Shown in pieces: positions 1,425-12,058 of a DNA stretch of 42,224 bases; within the stretch, counting starts at the first letter, position 1; the number at the start of each line of letters is the position of its first letter. Source of the stretch: Candidatus Woesebacteria bacterium RIFCSPHIGHO2_01_FULL_38_10 (GTDB taxonomy: Bacteria > Patescibacteriota > Microgenomatia > UBA8517); NCBI GenBank assembly GCA_001792215.1, contig MGGC01000038.1:73761-115984 (forward strand). The letters are read 5' to 3'. The position numbers and the translations under genes are program-made. The notes under the pieces are model-generated. The model had not been told where the DNA came from, did no database searches, and worked only from the letters and a program-made list of their open reading frames with translations.

Positions 1425-2678
1425 ATGGAAAGAGTCAAAATAGAAAAAACTGAGAAAAACTTTGCCACTGATTTACGTCAACTAGTGACCGATCTTGGTT
1501 TAGGAAATCAGGTGGGAATAGACTCCAAACCTTGCAGGTCGGGAGGAATTCGGATTATCTTTGCCGGAAAAAGAGAAATAAGCGCGGCTTGGGGCTCAGG
1601 CTTGGATCAAATAGAAAATGCTAAGTATTCCCTTTTAATTAAACTTATCGCCAGAAGTTTAGCTTGTGGAGAAAGATCGGTATCTTCCGGAGATCTTCTG
1701 GAAAAAGAAAGTTTCAGAGATGCTTGTGTTACTGAAGTTCAATTAAGTGAACCTTCTAAAGGGAATGAATTTTTATCATCTTTAACCGAAGTCGACGATG
1801 CAAGAATACCCTTTTTTTACGGATCAACCGACGGTTTAAACTTTGCAGAACTTCTAGAAACTGTTCTTACTGCTCGATACTTAGAGTCTAGAGGATTGGA
1901 TGCAACTGTTATTTTTGATACAGCAGGAAATGACTCTAAACGATCACGGCAGATGCTCTCAGAAAGCATTAGTGTTCTTCCTTATGAATTACGCCAAGAA
2001 TTTTTTAATTTTTTAAAAACTATTGGAGATACTTTGCAGGAACAAAGAATAAGCGCGGCAAAGGGTCTCTTGCCTAACACGAATCTTAGAATTTTACCTG
2101 CTGAACAGATATTTGACGCCCTGGGAAAAAAACTTACAGTTGGAAAACTCGCAGTTCTTGCCAAAATAGCCGGAGAGGATCCTCAACTCTTCCAAGGCGT
2201 GAGGGTATCTGAGCTATTAGCAAGCACTAATCAATCGAGAGAGGGTTTGCAACTACTTAAAACACTTGTCTCTGAAACTGGTTTGCAGCCTGCAGGTTTT
2301 ACCTACTACGCTAGAGATGCCGTGATCGCGGCCGAATTTCGCGGCATAGTTGGCTTTCCTTTTAAATTGACCGATCACGCAAACATTTACAAGATACTAG
2401 ATGGCTACTCTGCTCTCTATTCTCCATCAAAGGGAAGTGGGGCAATTCTTTGTCCTATCCAAAGACAAAGAATTCAAACCAGAAGTCAATCTCAAGAAGG
2501 GGCAGATCCTTTTGATGTAACTGCTTTATTTTTTTTATCCCAAAAGTTTCCGGAAGAATTTCACTTACTTATAGAAGACTTTACCCTGTCTACACGTATT
2601 CTTACACCGACAGAAGCAATTGGTATTGGTAATAAAGATAAGCGTTTTATCATTGAGGATTATTTTTTTAGAAGCTAA
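1425..2678 (+). CDS. Hypothetical protein, possible degenerate class I aaRS/CDPS-like Rossmann fold
   Basis: 417-aa ORF. FFYGSTDGLNFAEL...YLESRGLDATVIFD loosely resembles the HIGH region of Tyr/TrpRS. The fold call is weak. Confidence 0.7.
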   Translation: MERVKIEKTEKNFATDLRQLVTDLGLGNQVGIDSKPCRSGGIRIIFAGKREISAAWGSGLDQIENAKYSLLIKLIARSLACGERSVSSGDLLEKESFRDACVTEVQLSEPSKGNEFLSSLTEVDDARIPFFYGSTDGLNFAELLETVLTARYLESRGLDATVIFDTAGNDSKRSRQMLSESISVLPYELRQEFFNFLKTIGDTLQEQRISAAKGLLPNTNLRILPAEQIFDALGKKLTVGKLAVLAKIAGEDPQLFQGVRVSELLASTNQSREGLQLLKTLVSETGLQPAGFTYYARDAVIAAEFRGIVGFPFKLTDHANIYKILDGYSALYSPSKGSGAILCPIQRQRIQTRSQSQEGADPFDVTALFFLSQKFPEEFHLLIEDFTLSTRILTPTEAIGIGNKDKRFIIEDYFFRS

Positions 2679-2680
2679 AT

Positions 2681-3388
2681 ATGAAAAAGAAAAATCTTTT
2701 AATTATTTCTGCTCATGCTGATGACAATGTAAGTTGTGCCGGCACTGTGTTTAAACTGAGCCAAGAGTTCGGTTTCACTGCCTATGAGGCAGTTCTCACC
2801 AATTCTCAACTCGGACAAAGTTTCAAAAACAAAAAAGAAAAAAAGAAAAATTTGGTTGCGAGAGTAAGATTTAAAGAACTGAAAATAGCCTCAAAATACT
2901 TGGGAATCAAAAAAACATTCCAGTTTGGTAAACCCGACCTTAGTCTTGAATACAGCCAAGAAATTACTTTTAAGTTGGCAAAAATAATAAGAAAAGTTAA
3001 ACCCGAGGTTATCTTTCTACACAACCCCTACGACGCACATCCTGATCATAAAACTTCCTATAAAATTGGCCTAGATTCAATAAAAATTGCAGCTATGGGA
3101 GTTGAAAAAGAAAAGCTTGGAACTCCCTATAGGGTGCCAATTGTCCTTTGTAGTGAAGGGATGTTGCCTGTTAAAACTCAAATTCTGGTTGACATAACTA
3201 AGTATCAAAAAAAGAAAGAAAGACTTTTTAAGCTTTACTCTTCTCAGGCAAGTCCCAAGGCACTGAAGTTTGAAAAGGGTCTTTCTATGGTCAGAGGGTA
3301 TCAGCTGAAAAAAGATAAATCATTTTATGCCGAGGCTTTTACTTTACAGGAAGAGTTTCCAATCCTTTTCTTTGAAGAAAATGAATAA
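2681..3388 (+). CDS. PIG-L/LmbE family de-N-acetylase
   Basis: ISAHADD (HxDD), RxxE, HPDH and YxSQ motifs. Confidence 0.9.
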   Translation: MKKKNLLIISAHADDNVSCAGTVFKLSQEFGFTAYEAVLTNSQLGQSFKNKKEKKKNLVARVRFKELKIASKYLGIKKTFQFGKPDLSLEYSQEITFKLAKIIRKVKPEVIFLHNPYDAHPDHKTSYKIGLDSIKIAAMGVEKEKLGTPYRVPIVLCSEGMLPVKTQILVDITKYQKKKERLFKLYSSQASPKALKFEKGLSMVRGYQLKKDKSFYAEAFTLQEEFPILFFEENE

Positions 3389-4148
3389 GGTTTTTTTTGA
3401 CCAAAAAAGAAAAGTTTTTATTAAAGTACTGAAAGACTCTTTTAAAAAAGAGAGAGAAATTATTGGGGCAAATTGTTTCCAAAATTTTGTCAACGTACCG
3501 CTGTACGAACCCCTGGACAAAAAAACCTTAAAGATAATACCTGCAAAAGGAGTTAAATCCACCTTAGTTGATGAGCAAATTCTCAATTCTCTCATTATCA
3601 ACCTATCTACTTTAATTAAAAAAAGCAAATTTAAAGTAAATCCAAATTTCTCAATCTTGAAAGAAATAGAGGCGATTAAATTGGTTTTAAGAAATAAACC
3701 TGCAATTACTGATTGGTTAACTTCTCTCCAACTTTCTTTGGGTAGGAAAAATCTTTATCCGGTGCACGGAGATTTACAAAAACAAAACATCTTTGTAGCC
3801 AATAACAAAATCTCACTAATTGATTTTGAGCATTTCAGCTTCGCTCCGCTGGAACTGGAATTTGCTAATAATCTTTTTTTCAATAGCCCAAACTGCCTGG
3901 ATGTTGGAAAGATTATTCCTCCCCTTATCAAGAGAAAAATCGTCAGCAAGGATTTACTTACTCGTATGCTAGTTTTATACTCAATTAGGAAACTCGCAAA
4001 AGGATTAAAGGTAAAAGAGGTTGAAAAAAGACTTTCGCAAGGATTAGAGAAAATAGAAACGATTGTGGGAAAAGATCTTTCCCTTAGACTGCTTGATTTC
4101 AGAAGCGTTAAAAAGATTGACTGGACAGGGAGTTCGTGTCTTGCCTGA
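3381..4148 (+). CDS. Aminoglycoside phosphotransferase/choline kinase-like protein
   Basis: HGDLQKQNI and LIDFE motifs. Start moved to ATG 3381, which overlaps the upstream stop (ATGAATAA). Confidence 0.85.
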   Translation: MNKVFFDQKRKVFIKVLKDSFKKEREIIGANCFQNFVNVPLYEPLDKKTLKIIPAKGVKSTLVDEQILNSLIINLSTLIKKSKFKVNPNFSILKEIEAIKLVLRNKPAITDWLTSLQLSLGRKNLYPVHGDLQKQNIFVANNKISLIDFEHFSFAPLELEFANNLFFNSPNCLDVGKIIPPLIKRKIVSKDLLTRMLVLYSIRKLAKGLKVKEVEKRLSQGLEKIETIVGKDLSLRLLDFRSVKKIDWTGSSCLA

Positions 4149-4165
4149 ACTTTTAAACTGAACAT

Positions 4166-5416
4166 ATGAATAAACAAAAACTTCAAACTCTCAAAGGTTT
4201 TAGGGATTTTTTGCCGGCTGATGCCAAAAAACGTCAATTTACAATTGAAACTATTAAGCAAACTTTTGAGCTTTTCGGATTTGAGCCTTTGGAAACTCCA
4301 GCACTGGAATACCAGGAGGTTCTTCTGGGAAAATATGGTGAGGAAGCTGACAAGCTTGTCTATACATTCAAAGATAAAGGTAGAAGAGAAGTCGCACTGC
4401 GTTACGATCAGACCGTACCAACAGCTCGGGTCTTAGCTACCTATCAACAAAGATTAGCCATGCCTTTTCGTCGCTACCAAACTCAACCTGTATGGCGAGC
4501 TGAAAGACCCCAAAAAGGAAGGTTCAGAGAAATTCTTCAGTGTGACGCTGATATTTACGGATCAGCCTCTCCCCTTGCTGACACGGAAATTATTTCTTTA
4601 GCAAACTCAGTTTTCAAAAACTTAGGCTTTCAAAACTTTAGTATTTTTATCAATGACCGTAAAATACTTTTTGAACTGATGAACTACTCCTCAATCCCTG
4701 AAAACCTTCATCTTCAGGTAATTAGCGAAATTGACAAACTGGACAGAAAGGATAAAGAAGAAGTCACAATTGAGCTTACCAATTTGGGACTCTCTCAGAA
4801 AACTATAAATCATCTTTTCCAACACTTGGAGACATCCAAGCCGACCGAGAACATTGAGAAAATTACCGAATATGCCAAACTCATGGGTGTTGAAAAGGAT
4901 AAATTAAAGTTCCAGGCTCGACTTGCCCGAGGGCTGGATTATTACACCAGCACGATATTTGAAATAAAAATTGACGAGTACAAAGGCGGCTCAGTTGCCG
5001 GTGGAGGAAGGTACGACAACTTAATTGAAAAACTCTCCGGAAATTCAATCCCGGCTGTGGGAATTGCCTTTGGTATCGATAGGATCATTGAAGCAATGCA
5101 GGAAATTAAGCTTTTTTCCCAAGAAGAAAAAAGGCTTGGCTCTCTAATTACAATTTTTAACCCAGAGCTTATTCCAAGATCCTTGCGGGTGGCAAGAATC
5201 CTAAGACAAGCAAAAATTCCTTGTGAAATCTTCGTCGACCAGACTAAAGACCTTAAAAAACAACTAAAGTACGCCGATAAAAAGGGAATTAAATGGTTGA
5301 TTGTCATCGGTCCTGATGAGGCTAAAAATGCTTCAGTAATTTTAAAGGACTTAGAGACAGGATACCAGGAAAGCATTAAATTAAATGATTTAATAAGATA
5401 TTTATTAAAAAGATAA
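4166..5416 (+). CDS. hisS: Histidine--tRNA ligase
   Basis: KGFRDFLP, LRYDQTVP, RAERPQKGRFRE, RGLDYYT, GGGRYD; C-terminal anticodon-binding domain. Confidence 0.97.
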   Translation: MNKQKLQTLKGFRDFLPADAKKRQFTIETIKQTFELFGFEPLETPALEYQEVLLGKYGEEADKLVYTFKDKGRREVALRYDQTVPTARVLATYQQRLAMPFRRYQTQPVWRAERPQKGRFREILQCDADIYGSASPLADTEIISLANSVFKNLGFQNFSIFINDRKILFELMNYSSIPENLHLQVISEIDKLDRKDKEEVTIELTNLGLSQKTINHLFQHLETSKPTENIEKITEYAKLMGVEKDKLKFQARLARGLDYYTSTIFEIKIDEYKGGSVAGGGRYDNLIEKLSGNSIPAVGIAFGIDRIIEAMQEIKLFSQEEKRLGSLITIFNPELIPRSLRVARILRQAKIPCEIFVDQTKDLKKQLKYADKKGIKWLIVIGPDEAKNASVILKDLETGYQESIKLNDLIRYLLKR

Positions 5417-5493
5417 ACTACTTCGACCTAAAGTCCATTTGCAAGTATTCTCCTGCTTGAATCTTTATAGCACCGACCTATATCATTTAATTC

Positions 5494-6396
5494 ATGAGCT
5501 CATATCGCCTGCGCGCCTATTTTTATTTAATCATTATTTCGATTATCTGGGGGGCAGCTGGCCCGATTATTAAATTTACCCTGGGCGGAATTGACCCTCT
5601 TCCCTTCCTTTCTTACAGATTGGCAATTGCCAGTTTATTTTCTTTGGCCTTTTTCTTTGCCAAAGGAGTTAGGCTTCCCAAATCAAAATCAAGTCTGCTT
5701 TTGCTTTTTTTGTATGGATTTTTGGCTGTTCCGCTTGCTCTGGGGATCCTTTTTATCGGTCTTTCCAGCGCAACTGTTCTGGATCTTACTTTAATTAGTG
5801 CTATTGGTCCAATGGTTGTAACTTTAGGAGCCGGCTTTCTTCTGCACGAACACATCACAAAAAAGGAAAGATTGGGAATCGTAGTTGTCCTTATCGGAGT
5901 ATTTTTAAATATCTTCTATCCCCTATTGGCAAATGGTCAATCCCATTTTACAGGAAATTTATTTCTTTTAGCTTTCCTCTTCGCTGATTCAAGCTCAGCT
6001 CTGCTTGCCAAATTTGCAGTTCGTAAAAAAATCAACTCAATTACCCTAACCAACAGCGCATTTCTTATAGGAGCCGTATTTTTAATACCAATAACCTCCC
6101 AAAAATACGGATTTGCTAACCTTGTATCTACAATCATAAATTTACCGCTCAGGTACCACTTGGGTGTTTGGTATATGGCTTTAATTTCAGGCAGTCTGGC
6201 TTACTATCTTTATGTTAAAGCTCAACGATCAATTGAGGTTTCTGAAGCCATACTATTTAATTATCTTCAACCGGTCTTTTCGATTCCCCTAGCACTATTT
6301 TGGCTGGGAGAAAAAATTACTCCGGCATTTCTTCTAGGAGCACTAATTATTGCATTAGGAGTGATAATCGCTGAATACAAAAAGGCTTATAAGTAG
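5494..6396 (+). CDS. EamA/DMT family transporter
   Basis: About 10 TM helices in two repeats; IWG, LLHE and LGE motifs. Confidence 0.92.
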   Translation: MSSYRLRAYFYLIIISIIWGAAGPIIKFTLGGIDPLPFLSYRLAIASLFSLAFFFAKGVRLPKSKSSLLLLFLYGFLAVPLALGILFIGLSSATVLDLTLISAIGPMVVTLGAGFLLHEHITKKERLGIVVVLIGVFLNIFYPLLANGQSHFTGNLFLLAFLFADSSSALLAKFAVRKKINSITLTNSAFLIGAVFLIPITSQKYGFANLVSTIINLPLRYHLGVWYMALISGSLAYYLYVKAQRSIEVSEAILFNYLQPVFSIPLALFWLGEKITPAFLLGALIIALGVIIAEYKKAYK

Positions 6397-6508
6397 TAAT
6401 TCTTTCTGTTCAAATTAATTATTCTAATCAAAGAAGTGTTTTCTGTTTAATCTATGTCCTGCATTAAAAACACATCTTCCCCCAAGCCGTAATTGTCTCA
6501 TTTCATCA

Positions 6509-6775
6509 TCATAAGGCACAATATTGGGGCATCTTCAAAAGTCTATCGTCAGACCCTTTCTTGTTAAGATGAAGGGCTTGTACTTCGCCTCTAATAGGAT
6601 GTTGATTAACTTGACCGTCATTTCCTAAATAAGGATAGGTTACATTCTCATCCGACCAACAAGAAACTATCACCCAACCAGAAAGAAAAGTCCCTTCTTT
6701 TCTATCATAAGCTTGGGAAGCACAAAACGTAAGCATTTGGCCTTTTTTAACCTTAAATATCTCCGCAATACCCAT
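6509..6775 (-). CDS. Small hypothetical protein (MGIAEIFKVKK...)
   Basis: Internal ATG at 6775 avoids overlap with the rpmE promoter; no family recognised. Confidence 0.4.
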   Translation of the reverse strand: MGIAEIFKVKKGQMLTFCASQAYDRKEGTFLSGWVIVSCWSDENVTYPYLGNDGQVNQHPIRGEVQALHLNKKGSDDRLLKMPQYCAL

Positions 6776-6845
6776 TAAAGTTACTTCTCTAAAACCAATG
6801 TTATTGTAGCAAATAAAAGTTAATTTTGCTATAATTCTATTTATT

Positions 6846-7184
6846 ATGAAAGCCAAAATTCATCCCAGGACTTACTTTAATGCAAAAGTTAGCTGCGCCT
6901 GTGGCAACATTTTTACAACTGCATCCACACTTCAACAAATTACTGTTGAGGTCTGTAGCGCCTGCCATCCTTTTTATACCGGACAGATGAAATATGTGGA
7001 TACAGCTGGACGAGTCACCGCATTTAAACAAAGAAAGGCTAAAGCCCAAAAAAAGGTTATCTCGAAAACTGAAAAAAGAAAACTAAAACACCAGAAGAAA
7101 ATAGAAAAAGAGCTTAAAAAACCAGAAACTTTAGGTGAGCTTCGAAAAAAAGCCAAAGAGAAAAAGAAAAAAAAGGAAAGTTAA
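6846..7184 (+). CDS. rpmE: 50S ribosomal protein L31, Zn-binding type, with Lys-rich C-terminal extension
   Basis: [27 protein letters not shown]. Confidence 0.96.
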
Positions 7185-7907: not shown

Positions 7908-8453
7908 ATGTCTTTGTTGGAAAGACAAAAAAGTCGCTGTCCAAAAAATCCGCCTTATTGGAGATTCAATTCTTCTCGAAGAAGATTCCTAAGAACTTTA
8001 GCGATATTTCCAATAATAATCCTGTTTCCTTCCTCCTGTTCCGAACAAAAGCCTATCTATCCTCAGGGAAACAAAGGATTCATTTTTAATAATTGGTTTT
8101 ATGAGGAGCGTTTCTTTGAGGGGTTTGAGATAAAAAAAGTAACCCCGTATGAGCCAGTAGTTTTAATTTCAGAAGATGGCCTCCGCTTCTCAATTGAAAG
8201 CTATGTTTCCTCTGACCTTTTTCAGACGGAAGTTATCGCATCTGAGGGAATTCAGGAAATACCCTGCTGGCCTGAAGGAAAATGGCCACGTCAGAATCCT
8301 CCCCACTCATGTAATCAATGGGCAAAAGATTCTTCAAATGCATCAATAAGGGTAATACTTGAAGAAGACAAACTTTATCTAAGACAGCCAACACGAATAA
8401 TGACTGTCGCCTGGAGGCAGGATGAATGGACGCTTGATGAAAATCAACCATAG
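7908..8453 (+). CDS. Hypothetical exported protein/lipoprotein
   Basis: SRRRFL, a hydrophobic stretch, then PSSC. Confidence 0.6.
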   Translation: MSLLERQKSRCPKNPPYWRFNSSRRRFLRTLAIFPIIILFPSSCSEQKPIYPQGNKGFIFNNWFYEERFFEGFEIKKVTPYEPVVLISEDGLRFSIESYVSSDLFQTEVIASEGIQEIPCWPEGKWPRQNPPHSCNQWAKDSSNASIRVILEEDKLYLRQPTRIMTVAWRQDEWTLDENQP

Positions 8454-8487
8454 AAAAAAACTTGACTCCTTTGCTAAAATATTATTA

Positions 8488-8661
8488 GCCCCGCTAAGGG
8501 TGATTAGGAAAGCTTTTTTCTCATCAAAAATCATACTGGGAGAGCTTTAGTTCCTGATTTCTAAGGAGACTAGCTAAAAACGCTTGTTTCTGATGGAATT
8601 AAGACAGCTCACCCACCTGGAAACATCCGGGAAAAAACTTCATCCGACACCTAAGCGGGGT
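8488..8661 (+). ncRNA. ssrS: 6S RNA-like non-coding RNA
   Basis: Extended -10 TGC-TAAAAT (8472-8480) just upstream. End-to-end pairing gives a rod with a central A-rich bubble, 174 nt. Confidence 0.65.
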
Positions 8662-8723
8662 TTACAATTAAACACCCAAACAATACCCCTTTTAACAAAA
8701 AAATAATTATTATTAAATAAATC

Positions 8724-8918
8724 ATGCTTAGAAATCCTGATACTGAACCTACAACACTGGAAGTCATGAAGAGGGAGGTAGACGTTACCGAGGAAATAAT
8801 CGATGAAAGTATTAATGAGTTCAGGATATTCAGATTGGAAGAAGTTATAATAAGTTATGACAAAATTACTTCCCCTTCCCTTAACAATTTCACCTCCTTT
8901 ATAAATTTTTTGAATTAG
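8724..8918 (+). CDS. Small hypothetical protein or gene remnant
   Basis: 64-aa ORF, acidic, no motif. Confidence 0.3.
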   Translation: MLRNPDTEPTTLEVMKREVDVTEEIIDESINEFRIFRLEEVIISYDKITSPSLNNFTSFINFLN

Positions 8919-9117
8919 AGCAAACTAAAGCCTAAAAATCATCTGCCTCTTGATTTTACGGTAAAAATATTTCTACATTGTTATGATACCTAACTCTTCC
9001 GATCGCTTTTTTGATGACCGCATTGGTCAATTTGAGGAATCGAGCTGGGTACGATTAGTGCGGCCTTTAAAATTATTTAAGTTTTGTTCTTTAAAAGATT
9101 TAGCGCTTTTTCAGAGG

Positions 9118-9495
9118 CTAAACTTCTATTGCTAGAAACTTCATTAGAAGCATAGGAAGAGGCTTTAACTCACGATTGATTGGATCAAGAATCACACCTA
9201 ATGATTCTAATGTAACTGCTCCTAGAAGATAAATTCCTTTTTCACCAAACACTACCGGAGAACCTCGTAATCTTCCTCGATATTCGAATAATCCGTTCCC
9301 TATGAGTTTTTCTATTACTTCACCATTCGCAAGAGTGAATTTCTGTTTATCTCTCGATTTTATCCCGATTTTTTTTAAAACTGATGTTGGCATTACTGAA
9401 TAAACAGCACCAGAATCAACCAAAAAATGTCCAACTGTAAATTTCTGCGGATTTTGAGGATTTTTAACCTTAATATCAAGATACGTAATTGACAT
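9118..9495 (-). CDS. Clan AA (retropepsin-like) aspartyl protease
   Basis: LVDSGA, LANG and LLG motifs. Start set to 9495 because the longer ORF runs into tRNA-Tyr; TGA-TATAAT lies 7 nt upstream. Confidence 0.88.
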   Translation of the reverse strand: MSITYLDIKVKNPQNPQKFTVGHFLVDSGAVYSVMPTSVLKKIGIKSRDKQKFTLANGEVIEKLIGNGLFEYRGRLRGSPVVFGEKGIYLLGAVTLESLGVILDPINRELKPLPMLLMKFLAIEV

Positions 9496-9545: not shown

Positions 9546-9630
9546 TGCTAGGACCAGGATTCGAACCTGGGTAGCCCATCCGGGCGACAGTTTTACAGAC
9601 TGTTGCGTTTGACCGCTCCGCCATCCTAGC
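9546..9630 (-). tRNA. tRNA-Tyr(GTA)
   Basis: GCTAGGA acceptor, ACAGT-CTGTAAA-ACTGT anticodon arm, long variable arm, GGTTCGAATCC. Confidence 0.95.
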
Positions 9631-9775
9631 TCAATTGCCTGTCCCGTGTTTCTGCGAAGCAGAAATTTACGGGCTCCACTCCAACACCGCAATTCCTTAG
9701 CCAATTTGAACCTTCCTAGAAAATCGCACTCTGATCGACGGTTTATCCCAAAAAATCGTGCTTGCTTATCTTTTG

Positions 9776-9847
9776 AGCCGAGAAAGGGATTTGAACCCTT
9801 GACCCCCTGTTTACAAAACAGGTGCTCTACCGCTGAGCTATCTCGGC
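9776..9847 (-). tRNA. tRNA-Thr(TGT)
   Basis: GCCGAGA/TCTCGGC acceptor, CCTGT-TTTGTAA-ACAGG, GGTTCAAATCC. Confidence 0.95.
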
Positions 9848-11304: not shown

Positions 11305-11377
11305 GCCTGGATAGCTCAGTTGGCAGAGCGTGCCCTTGGTAAGGGCAAGGTCATGGGTTCGATCCCCATCCCAGGCT
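11305..11377 (+). tRNA. tRNA-Thr(GGT)
   Basis: GCCTGGA/CCAGGC acceptor, TGCCC-TTGGTAA-GGGCA, GGTTCGATCCC. Confidence 0.95.
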
Positions 11378-11382
11378 CACAA

Positions 11383-11782
11383 TTAACTTAAAACTAAAAA
11401 CTTAAGATGGGATTCAGATTTAGAGATTTTCCTATATATTCAGAACTAAGACAATTTATTAAGGGGATTTATATACTCAATTCCAAGTTGCCTCAAAAAG
11501 AAAACTATGGACTCGCTTCTCAGCTTAGAAGAGCAGCAACCTCAGCACTACTTAACTTAACAGAAGGGTCTATGAAAAAATCAGACAAGGAATTTAATAG
11601 ATTCTTGTTAATCTCAATAGGTTCAATAAGCGAAATAGTAGCTATTTTGGACATCTGTTTAGATCAAAAATATATTTCTTCTTTAATTCACAAACAATAT
11701 TTGATAAAATGCGAAACACTCGTTAAGAAACTTTACAGTTTCAGAAAGACACTAAAACTTAAGTCCTAAGTTTTTTAGTTAA
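11383..11782. repeat. Imperfect heptamer-based inverted repeats flanking the four helix bundle gene
   Basis: Left AACTTAA AACTAAA AACTTAA (11385-11405); right TTAAGTC CTAAGTT T TTTAGTT (11759-11780). Confidence 0.65.
11407..11769 (+). CDS. Four helix bundle protein (23S rRNA IVP-like family)
   Basis: LPxxExYGLxSQLRRAAxSxxxNxxEG and FLxISxGSxxE motifs. Confidence 0.92.
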   Translation: MGFRFRDFPIYSELRQFIKGIYILNSKLPQKENYGLASQLRRAATSALLNLTEGSMKKSDKEFNRFLLISIGSISEIVAILDICLDQKYISSLIHKQYLIKCETLVKKLYSFRKTLKLKS

Positions 11783-11793
11783 CCAAAAGTTAC

Positions 11794-11967
11794 ATGGCCA
11801 AAAAAGGAGCTCGAGAAATAGTCGCACTAGTTTGCAAAAATTGCAAAAGTCAAAATTACGCCACAGTCCGTAATAAGCTTAATATGGAGGGAAAACTAAC
11901 CTTGAATAAATATTGCAAACGTTGTAAAAAACACACCGTTCATAAAGAAACTACCAAGTTAAAGTAA
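11794..11967 (+). CDS. rpmG: 50S ribosomal protein L33 (Zn-binding)
   Basis: MAKKGAREIVALVCKNCKSQNY...LNKYCKRCKKHTVHKE, 57 aa; below the ORF-track cutoff. Confidence 0.95.
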   Translation: MAKKGAREIVALVCKNCKSQNYATVRNKLNMEGKLTLNKYCKRCKKHTVHKETTKLK

Positions 11968-11987
11968 AATAGTCCGAAGTTTCATTT

Positions 11988-12058
11988 AGGGCTGTAGTTA
12001 AATGGTATAACAGCGGTCTCCAGAACCGCTATTGGGGGTTCGATTCCCTCCAGCCCTG
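11988..12058 (+). tRNA. tRNA-Trp(CCA)
   Basis: AGGGCTG/CAGCCCT acceptor, GCGGT-CTCCAGA-ACCGC, GGTTCGATTCC; follows rpmG as usual. Confidence 0.93.

Follow-up and report, generated by a model that had tools for sequence, protein, structure and literature searches.

An operon joining a BshC-like fold protein, a PIG-L deacetylase and a small-molecule kinase behind a predicted leader-peptide attenuator in Microgenomatia

We analyzed a locus from Candidatus Woesebacteria bacterium RIFCSPHIGHO2_01_FULL_38_10 (Patescibacteriota, Microgenomatia), whose genome (GCA_001792215.1, here G000) comprises 1.02 Mb in 41 contigs, is 92.9% complete and holds about 978 genes. The window, by which we mean the whole 42,224-nucleotide (nt) stretch that was analyzed (positions 73,761 to 115,984 of contig MGGC01000038.1), carries near its start five open reading frames (ORFs) on the forward strand: a gene for a 417-amino-acid (aa) protein without annotation, hereafter the orphan (1425-2678); a PIG-L/LmbE-type deacetylase gene (2681-3388); a gene for a compact kinase (3381-4148); hisS, for the histidine--tRNA ligase HisRS (4166-5416); and an EamA/DMT transporter gene (5494-6396). 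They are separated by gaps of 2, −8, 17 and 77 nt and preceded by a leader (1231-1424). A preliminary description of this DNA had reported the same five frames, the first three gaps and two segments of the orphan translation (FFYGSTDGLNFAEL... and FTYYARD), all of which we found where it had put them. Its domain calls were likewise recovered, those for PIG-L, HisRS and EamA by Pfam and NCBIfam and that for an APH-type kinase by fold (Z 14.8). It had also read the five genes as a single pathway dependent on His-tRNA. Our analysis instead delimits the functional unit as a three-gene operon of orphan, PIG-L and kinase, not five genes.

The three genes recur together across distant genomes. An 8-row alignment of the orphan (A2) recovered seven related loci, two from species genomes and five from metagenomes, and in all seven the orphan gene is directly adjoined by an orthologous PIG-L gene and then by the kinase gene, in the same order. 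Identities to the window are 34 to 48% for the orphan, 53 to 66% for PIG-L and 29 to 44% for the kinase, and this recurrent order is beyond chance. Within the set, L011 and L012 represent one population, L012 is cut upstream and its orphan is truncated by the contig end, and the L010 contig stops directly past the kinase. Conservation of the neighborhood, as the preliminary description had envisaged it, therefore holds for the deacetylase and the kinase (7/7 loci); an aminoacyl-tRNA synthetase (aaRS) gene is often adjacent as well, but it is a different one from lineage to lineage (trpS, tyrS or proS). The orphan family was found in none of 60 relatives scanned for the cassette and in none of 400 genomes sampled evenly from the phylum. 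Cassette-type PIG-L was also absent from the 60 relatives, which have just paralogues at 27 to 39% identity, and the relatives without the orphan are thus also without its deacetylase partner.

Two of these loci have peculiarities of their own. In L008 (Microgenomates OLB22) the homologue of the orphan is broken into one ORF at 7938-8528 and a second, in another frame, at 8608-9204, beside intact PIG-L and kinase genes; the break reflects either a frameshift in a pseudogene or a mistake in the assembly. The title of the L007 record (CAYZCU010000003.1), "uncultured Gammaproteobacteria," looks doubtful, as the genome measures about 0.9 Mb and the locus has a cassette of the Microgenomates type and a tyrS of the archaeal type (NF006330).

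The orphan belongs to a protein family that lacks annotation. It has no Pfam match at E ≤ 0.1 and no NCBIfam family, and when all of 1.84 billion representatives were scanned with HMMER (cut-off, E ≤ 0.001), a small family of 28 other clusters emerged, 26 of them at E ≤ 1e-30 and the majority 413 to 444 aa long. All are unnamed or called "hypothetical protein," and the cluster closest to the orphan is assigned by its source to Candidatus Woesebacteria. Full-text literature searches, in which some matches were judged by title and by the opening of the abstract, found no description of either the family or the cassette. Fusions of the orphan were not found among longer proteins (778 to 2220 aa), which is weak evidence. 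The idea of a paralogue elsewhere in the host genome was dropped, with one match only.

We modeled the orphan with AlphaFold2 from a 26-row alignment of the family (A1) and obtained a confident structure (predicted local distance difference test score [pLDDT], 94; predicted template modeling score, 0.92). It consists of a small N-terminal alpha/beta domain (about residues 1 to 82) and a class I aaRS-type Rossmann domain (about residues 100 to 417). Foldseek against the PDB and a Foldseek-independent search (VIA), each with 50 matches listed, both ranked Bacillus subtilis BshC (YllA; PDB 4wbd) at the top, with E 7e-4 in Foldseek and with Z 10.6, 279 aligned residues, a root mean square deviation (rmsd) of 5.0 and 12% identity in VIA. 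Next in Foldseek came ArgRS, class I LysRS, pantothenate synthetase and TyrRS; VIA gave class I LysRS (1irx; Z 8.5), ArgRS (7.8), GluRS and CysRS (7.0) and MshC (3c8z; 6.0), with the class I aaRS matches at Z 7.0 to 8.5 spanning about residues 100 to 417. The orphan is thus predicted to fold as a class I aaRS-type protein and not as something unrelated. The preliminary description had compared it by eye with the class Ic aaRS and cyclodipeptide synthase fold; the class I aaRS-type Rossmann part of that comparison stands. The nearest structure is BshC, the class Ic enzymes TyrRS and TrpRS reach only Z 5.0 to 5.5 in VIA, and no cyclodipeptide synthase is among the 50 matches listed by either search, an absence from two lists that is not enough to exclude such a fold. 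An ESM Atlas model of the orphan was poor (pLDDT 0.34) and its structural rows (TM at most 0.32) were disregarded, leaving no usable feature match. A predicted complex of the orphan with PIG-L scored 0.00 with controls not run and was used neither way.

On the evidence of this model, the relationship between the orphan and BshC is structural only, with no detectable sequence link; the best PDB sequence match of the orphan, to ribosomal protein uS7 at E 0.23, was rejected as noise. The class I signature motifs are absent throughout the family, as the preliminary description had said of the window protein: H-x-G-[HN] follows the first strand in 0/26 members (one has an unrelated HSGH elsewhere), and a KMSKS-like motif occurs in 0/26. 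The HIGH position is occupied instead by an almost invariant G-S-T-x-G-[IL]-N-x-A-E, part of a family signature P-x-x-Y-G-S-T-x-G-[IL]-N-x-A-E-x-x-E-T; N139 and E142 belong to this site. Most members are acidic (isoelectric point below 6.5 in 18 of 29 proteins and above 8 in 5), and no anticodon-binding domain was recognized among the model's structural matches; together these features do not suggest tRNA binding.

Several characterized systems resemble the orphan in part. With BshC it shares a Rossmann core like that of class I aaRS and a PIG-L deacetylase partner, which in the BshC system supplies the amine; it differs in being about 120 aa shorter than the 540-aa BshC, in having a different N-terminal domain (residues 1 to 82) and in sharing one operon with a deacetylase and a kinase. 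Mycothiol synthesis by MshB and MshC follows the same logic of a PIG-L deacetylase and then a class I aaRS-fold ligase. MshC, however, is a CysRS paralogue that retains ATP motifs and a zinc site, while the orphan has no HIGH, no KMSKS and no invariant Cys or His. Catalytic domains of class I aaRS (LysRS 1irx, ArgRS, GluRS and CysRS) share with it the Rossmann fold with inserted helical modules, and they are set apart by their signature motifs and by the mostly acidic character of the orphan family, in whose modeled member no anticodon-binding domain was recognized. Cyclodipeptide synthases are likewise aaRS-derived Rossmann enzymes without HIGH and KMSKS, a likeness to the orphan at the level of fold type and missing motifs.

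The second gene (2681-3388) encodes a predicted PIG-L/LmbE-type, metal-dependent N-acetylglucosaminyl deacetylase or amidase. Its product matches PF02585 at 76 bits (cut-off, 28.2), and its best NCBIfam matches are BshB1, BshB2 and Mca, although it scores below every equivalogue cut-off (for BshB1, TIGR04001, 72.5 bits against 182.5). The residues H12-x-D14-D15 and H120-x-D122-H123 are invariant in all seven sequences compared and correspond to the HXDD+H metal and base motif that the account of LmbE-like enzymes in PMC4101496 sets out as a rule; the same account describes all characterized members as hydrolyzing substrates with an N-acetylglucosamine (GlcNAc) core or glucosamine amides. The closest solved relatives are an archaeal diacetylchitobiose deacetylase (6.5e-17), TT1542 and Bacillus cereus BshB (2ixd). 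With BshB, TT1542 and the archaeal enzyme the cassette protein shares the PF02585 domain and an intact HXDD+H motif; it differs from known LmbE enzymes in forming an orthologue group of its own (53 to 66% identity) that occurs only with the orphan. Two further, distant PIG-L paralogues are encoded in G000 (C36:26753-27097 and C38:52469-53050; 38% and 32% identical).

The third gene (ATG at 3381) encodes a predicted small-molecule kinase of 255 aa with the APH/choline-kinase fold. Sequence matches are weak (APH PF01636, 18.8 bits against 23.2; choline kinase also weak), but the orthologues in L007 and L008 pass the PF01636 cut-off (27.8 and 34.3 bits). A structural model (pLDDT 87.6) matches APH(4)-Ia (3tyk) at Z 14.8 and 58 chains at Z ≥ 8, including corramycin kinase (14.0), LicA (13.8), amicoumacin kinase (13.7), homoserine kinase (13.7) and fructosamine-3-kinase (13.6). 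Assignment as a Bud32/RIO protein kinase was dropped, those structures reaching about Z 9 to 10, far under the small-molecule kinases. K15, E26, H129-G-D131-x-x-K-x-N136 and D148 are invariant in 7/7 sequences and correspond to the beta3 lysine, the helix-C glutamate, the H-x-D-x4-N loop (H129, D131 and N136) and the Mg-binding aspartate. Fold, catalytic loop and Mg-binding residue are thus common to this protein and APH/choline-kinase-type enzymes, from which it differs in its unusually small size (209 to 258 aa in the alignment versus 255 to 420 aa for the matched chains). The C-terminal tail (4100-4148) is modeled as disordered (pLDDT below 50). It ends in a D-W-T-x-S-[ST]-C-x-A-like sequence in the window and L009 (about 9150-9184), reads S-A-S-T-C-R-A in L011 (about 5260-5296) and L012 and does not occur in L007, L008, L010 and L013.

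Upstream of the operon lies a leader that looks like a ribosome-mediated transcription attenuator, a prediction drawn from sequence features alone. On the forward strand of the window, a sigma-70-like promoter (TTGACA-18-TATACT with a TG before the −10; 1231-1260) ends 12 nt before the ATG of a 30-codon leader ORF (1273-1365) with W-H-R-R-H at codons 11 to 15. This ORF runs through a small hairpin (CCTC...GAGG; 1325-1340) whose 3' arm (1333-1340) is a candidate antiterminator, complementary to the 5' arm of a predicted intrinsic terminator; the terminator comprises a GC-rich hairpin (1392-1412) and, after it, a T-run (to 1422), and it ends just ahead of the orphan ATG. The attenuator named in the preliminary description is accordingly real as sequence, in its promoter (1231-1260) as in its hairpin and T-run (1392-1412).

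We compared this region with the leaders of six related loci, L007 (7833-7997), L008 (7814-7937), L009 (6319-6430), L010 (6784-6937), L011 (2421-2572) and L013 (6851-7009), leaving out L012, which is cut upstream. All seven leaders have a comparable promoter (scores of 8 to 11 of 12, with the −10 ending 6 to 12 nt before the leader ATG), an ORF of 15 to 30 codons, and a hairpin followed by at least five T residues 7 to 37 nt before the orphan start, with stem sequences that differ between loci. The short distance from −10 to ATG implies a message that is leaderless or nearly so. In the window the antiterminator-terminator duplex has a predicted energy of −11.4 kcal/mol, compared with a shuffle mean of −4.6, and 1 of 200 shuffles does as well. 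Antiterminator complementarity beats shuffles in six of the seven leaders (0 to 5 of 200), with the segment in the 3' part of the leader ORF; the L009 leader fails this crude test (41 of 200 shuffles as good). A Trp codon stands beside a His, Cys, Arg or aromatic residue in six of the leader peptides; the seventh, that of L008, has Cys-Lys there. The Arg codons vary between loci (AGG, CGC and CGG), and this synonymous variation points to a constraint on the leader at the level of peptide or codon identity.

The arrangement in the window suggests how such a leader might work. Codons 11 to 15 (1303-1317) are closely followed by the first hairpin arm (1325-1328), and the stop codon is at 1363-1365; the position of W-H-R-R-H relative to that arm gives a geometry that appears to fit the classical attenuation scheme. 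Transcription would start at the leader ATG or slightly upstream of it. A ribosome reaching the end of the leader ORF would cover the antiterminator element (1333-1340) and the terminator would form, whereas a ribosome held at the Trp-His-Arg stretch, where we infer a stalling signal, would mask the first hairpin arm only, so that the antiterminator could pair with the 5' arm of the terminator. Antitermination would then give read-through into the operon and, in the host genome, on into hisS. Leader-peptide attenuators of the trp, his and pheST type and ligand-sensing arrest peptides likewise have a short ORF over mutually exclusive hairpins. The cassette leader differs from the trp, his and pheST attenuators in having no run of a single codon, but instead a conserved Trp-His/Cys-Arg/aromatic stretch, and in an ORF that begins 6 to 12 nt after the −10 on a (nearly) leaderless message. 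Rfam gave no match to the leader at gathering score (best, Phe_leader at 22.8 bits against 55), and a T-box or known riboswitch was dropped for lack of a family match. None of the sequencing runs listed as holding the locus is an RNA run; the 19 listed are all DNA, from groundwater or soil metagenomes.

The two genes downstream of the kinase are ancestral neighbors and not members of the cassette. The hisS product matches TIGR00442 at 396 bits (cut-off, 286.75) over positions 1 to 405 of 406, it is the only such match above cut-off in the host genome, and there is one tRNA-His gene; the EamA product matches its Pfam family at 127 bits. Of the three closest relatives examined for hisS context (G001, G002 and G005; hisS 56 to 63% identical to that of the window), all keep the order membrane protein, hisS, EamA, rpmE and release factor without the cassette, and in the window and L009 the leader and cassette stand between the membrane-protein gene and hisS. 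Among the related loci hisS follows the kinase in L009 only (1/7, with L010 cut at this point), EamA follows hisS there only, and both are absent from the loci of the other lineages. These observations contradict the membership of hisS and EamA in the pathway and lend no support to its dependence on His-tRNA, both proposed in the preliminary description, and they bear out that description's own caveat that hisS looks like a normal housekeeping copy. Synteny without the cassette and a single housekeeping hisS together leave no indication of a role for histidine or of export by EamA. The L009 hisS is 44% identical to that of the window, more distant than those of the relatives without the cassette, a pattern that suggests that the cassette entered this site long ago and was lost later on in some genomes; between the window and L009 the cassette proteins are 41 to 61% identical, compared with 44 to 49% for hisS and EamA. 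With a gap of 17 nt and no strong promoter of its own (its only candidate is a 9-of-12 match at 3953-3981), hisS is probably transcribed by read-through from the cassette. The separate promoter that had been proposed for EamA (TTGAAT-18-TATCAT) is present at 5457-5486, but it too is a 9-of-12 match, of which the region has 19 against 15.7 expected from shuffles.

Although hisS is not a cassette member, a housekeeping aaRS gene is the nearest credible neighbor on one side of the cassette in four of five lineages. In the window and L009 it is hisS, downstream of the cassette; in L013 it is trpS, which overlaps the stop codon of the kinase gene by 4 nt; in L007 it is a divergent tyrS about 540 nt away (one of the normal W/Y enzyme pair of that 0.9-Mb genome); and in L011 it is proS, which lies upstream, ahead of the promoter that serves the cassette. 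In L008 the cassette has no such neighbor. The chance of such adjacency in at least four of five lineages is roughly 1e-5 to 3e-5, a post hoc estimate over five lineages that assumes 20 to 25 aaRS genes among about 978. Two loci also carry a HinT-like HIT-family gene 8 nt after the kinase (L011, 5305-5670; L012, 2234-2599), whose match to NF007965 is 65 bits against a cut-off of 206.

The best explanation that we can offer for this gene set, held tentatively and short of calling it probable, is by analogy with low-molecular-weight thiol synthesis: the cassette would deacetylate and then aminoacylate a GlcNAc-type small molecule, with a phosphorylation step. PIG-L would remove the N-acetyl group and expose the 2-amino group, the BshC-like orphan would acylate that amine with an activated amino acid, and the kinase would phosphorylate a hydroxyl group on the substrate, on the aglycone or on the product; the substrate class, the order of reactions and the amino-acid donor are inferred. 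The pairs BshB-BshC and MshB-MshC are described in the relevant sections of PMC4360819 and PMC5790435 as consecutive steps in which deacetylation is followed by addition of cysteine. Relative to these systems, what would be new here is a pathway in which a kinase, rather than a glycosyltransferase, is encoded with the deacetylase and the aaRS-fold ligase, along with a new sequence family and a new leader-peptide attenuator.

A number of points weigh against this proposal. The BshC match (Z 10.6 at rmsd 5.0 and 12% identity) is, in the model, a fold-level one by which function is not established. PF10079, the BshC family, gave no match at E ≤ 1 in G000, G457 or G458, with a positive B. subtilis control, and none among the 26 orphan family members at E ≤ 10; those members share no recurring Pfam family, having single chance matches only, and the A1 profile found nothing among PDB sequences at E ≤ 10. 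The orphan family has no invariant Cys or His, which makes a zinc site for cysteine of the CysRS/MshC type unlikely. The cassette encodes no glycosyltransferase and the host genome no BshA equivalogue (best GT4 match, 131 bits against 273.7). Bacilliredoxins (BrxA/B and BrxC; PF06491 and PF11009) were found in 0/3 genomes, and a thiol role is therefore without support beyond analogy. Leader-peptide attenuators, moreover, are more usual for amino-acid supply or antibiotic-resistance genes than for cofactor synthesis. Finally, the pertinent parts of PMC5790435 and PMC4360819 state that the BshC reaction has never been reconstituted and that the reaction and its activated donor remain unknown, so the analogy rests on genetics and not on a known mechanism.

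Other explanations account for parts of the same evidence. The cassette might be an inducible detoxification, resistance or salvage module against an environmental aminosugar-containing compound, for instance a translation or aaRS inhibitor or a cell-wall fragment, which we consider unlikely without dismissing it. The kinase would phosphorylate such a compound, PIG-L would act as an amidase that cleaves or deacylates it, and the leader peptide would sense translation stress and switch the operon on. The nearest kinase structures are indeed mostly antibiotic kinases (for hygromycin, aminoglycosides, corramycin, amicoumacin and macrolides; Z 12.7 to 14.8), but these dominate the solved structures of the fold and would be expected at the top ranks, and choline, homoserine and fructosamine kinases lie within about 1 to 2 Z units of the top. 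Mca and Bca, which PMC4101496 in its treatment of the family lists as conjugate amidases, are among the PIG-L relatives. An all-or-none, patchy distribution (0/60 relatives and 0/400 phylum genomes) and predicted control by a leader-peptide attenuator would also suit resistance genes; the cassette nevertheless appears old and vertically kept at one site, since its divergence between the window and L009 is similar to that of hisS and EamA. Detoxification could further accommodate the aaRS neighbors in several loci and a HinT-like phosphoramidase directly downstream in L011 and L012, although the latter match is below its family cut-off, and it leaves the ligase-fold protein without an obvious role, even though all the loci have this protein, with its gene at the head of the operon. 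Improbable, to our mind, is a coupling to translation enzymes in which motif-less BshC-type ligases receive an aminoacyl-adenylate or aminoacyl-tRNA from a housekeeping aaRS while the leader reads tRNA charging or ribosome state. HinT hydrolyzes aminoacyl-adenylates, and L011 and L012 have a HinT-like gene next to the cassette; the aaRS neighbors in four of five lineages, with their low post hoc chance estimate, and the absence of HIGH and KMSKS from 26/26 orphan family members favor such a coupling as well. The sections of PMC5790435 and PMC4360819 on BshC add that it probably needs an activated cysteine not yet identified and that a second protein may be able to enter its open active site. 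Yet the neighboring aaRS differs in every lineage, a poor fit to one conserved chemistry, and hisS adjacency is ancestral synteny that exists in the host lineage without the cassette. The L007 tyrS is divergent and about 540 nt off, the L011 proS lies upstream of the cassette promoter, L008 has no such neighbor, the orphan family is mostly acidic with no anticodon-binding domain seen, and small genomes are dense in translation genes.

Two more specific pathways seem very improbable. One is the original five-gene scheme, in which hisS makes the donor and EamA exports the product. Its attractions are that hisS follows the kinase by 17 nt without a strong promoter of its own, that L009 has the same hisS-EamA continuation and that the leader ORF has two His codons; it is contradicted by synteny, because G001, G002 and G005 keep the hisS-EamA context without the cassette, by the occurrence of hisS after the kinase in 1/7 related loci (L010 being cut) with EamA absent from the other loci, and by a hisS that is the sole copy, full length and above the equivalogue cut-off. 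Equally hard to credit is the canonical pathway to bacillithiol (or mycothiol), in which the orphan would be a divergent BshC and PIG-L would be BshB. BshC is the top structural match and BshB1 and BshB2 are the best NCBIfam matches of PIG-L, but PIG-L falls well short of the BshB1 cut-off (72.5 against 182.5 bits), PF10079 and a BshA equivalogue are missing, the orphan has no invariant Cys or His, and BrxA/B and BrxC occur in 0/3 genomes. The known pathway, as laid out in the corresponding part of PMC5790435, also has no place for a kinase.

Whichever of these readings applies, the cassette bears on several questions. The only structural guide to the orphan family is BshC, whose reaction has defied attempts to reconstitute it ever since the enzyme was discovered, and a second, very different family with the BshC fold, in one operon with a deacetylase and a kinase, would offer an independent system for finding the substrates of such ligases. 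If a housekeeping aaRS did supply the ligase, an aaRS-made donor would be a testable answer to the missing "activated cysteine" donor of BshC, and the ligase would bring to light an aminoacyl-aminosugar as a metabolite of the candidate phyla radiation. Bacteria of this radiation have little biosynthesis, and a dedicated, tightly regulated small-molecule pathway is therefore unusual there; its product may be a protective aminoacyl-aminosugar, or the cassette may disarm one. The leader, for its part, would be a compact and apparently leaderless peptide attenuator conserved across distant Microgenomates, a group in which regulatory RNA is barely described.

Farther downstream we noted some additional features. 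EamA and rpmE are separated by 449 nt (6397-6845) in the window and are nearly contiguous in G001 and G005; the gap has one ORF only, on the minus strand (6509-6856; 115 aa). Four tRNA genes follow in two pairs, at 9546-9847 on the minus strand and at 11305-12058 on the plus strand. When 16 relatives were searched with HisRS, the best match in seven of them (G003, G004, G007, G008, G038, G040 and G042) covered only about residues 7 to 312 of the query (7 to 326 in G040), in open frames of 294 to 329 aa. These short matches correspond to the catalytic domain without the C-terminal anticodon-binding domain, and that of G040 also has an in-frame TAG.

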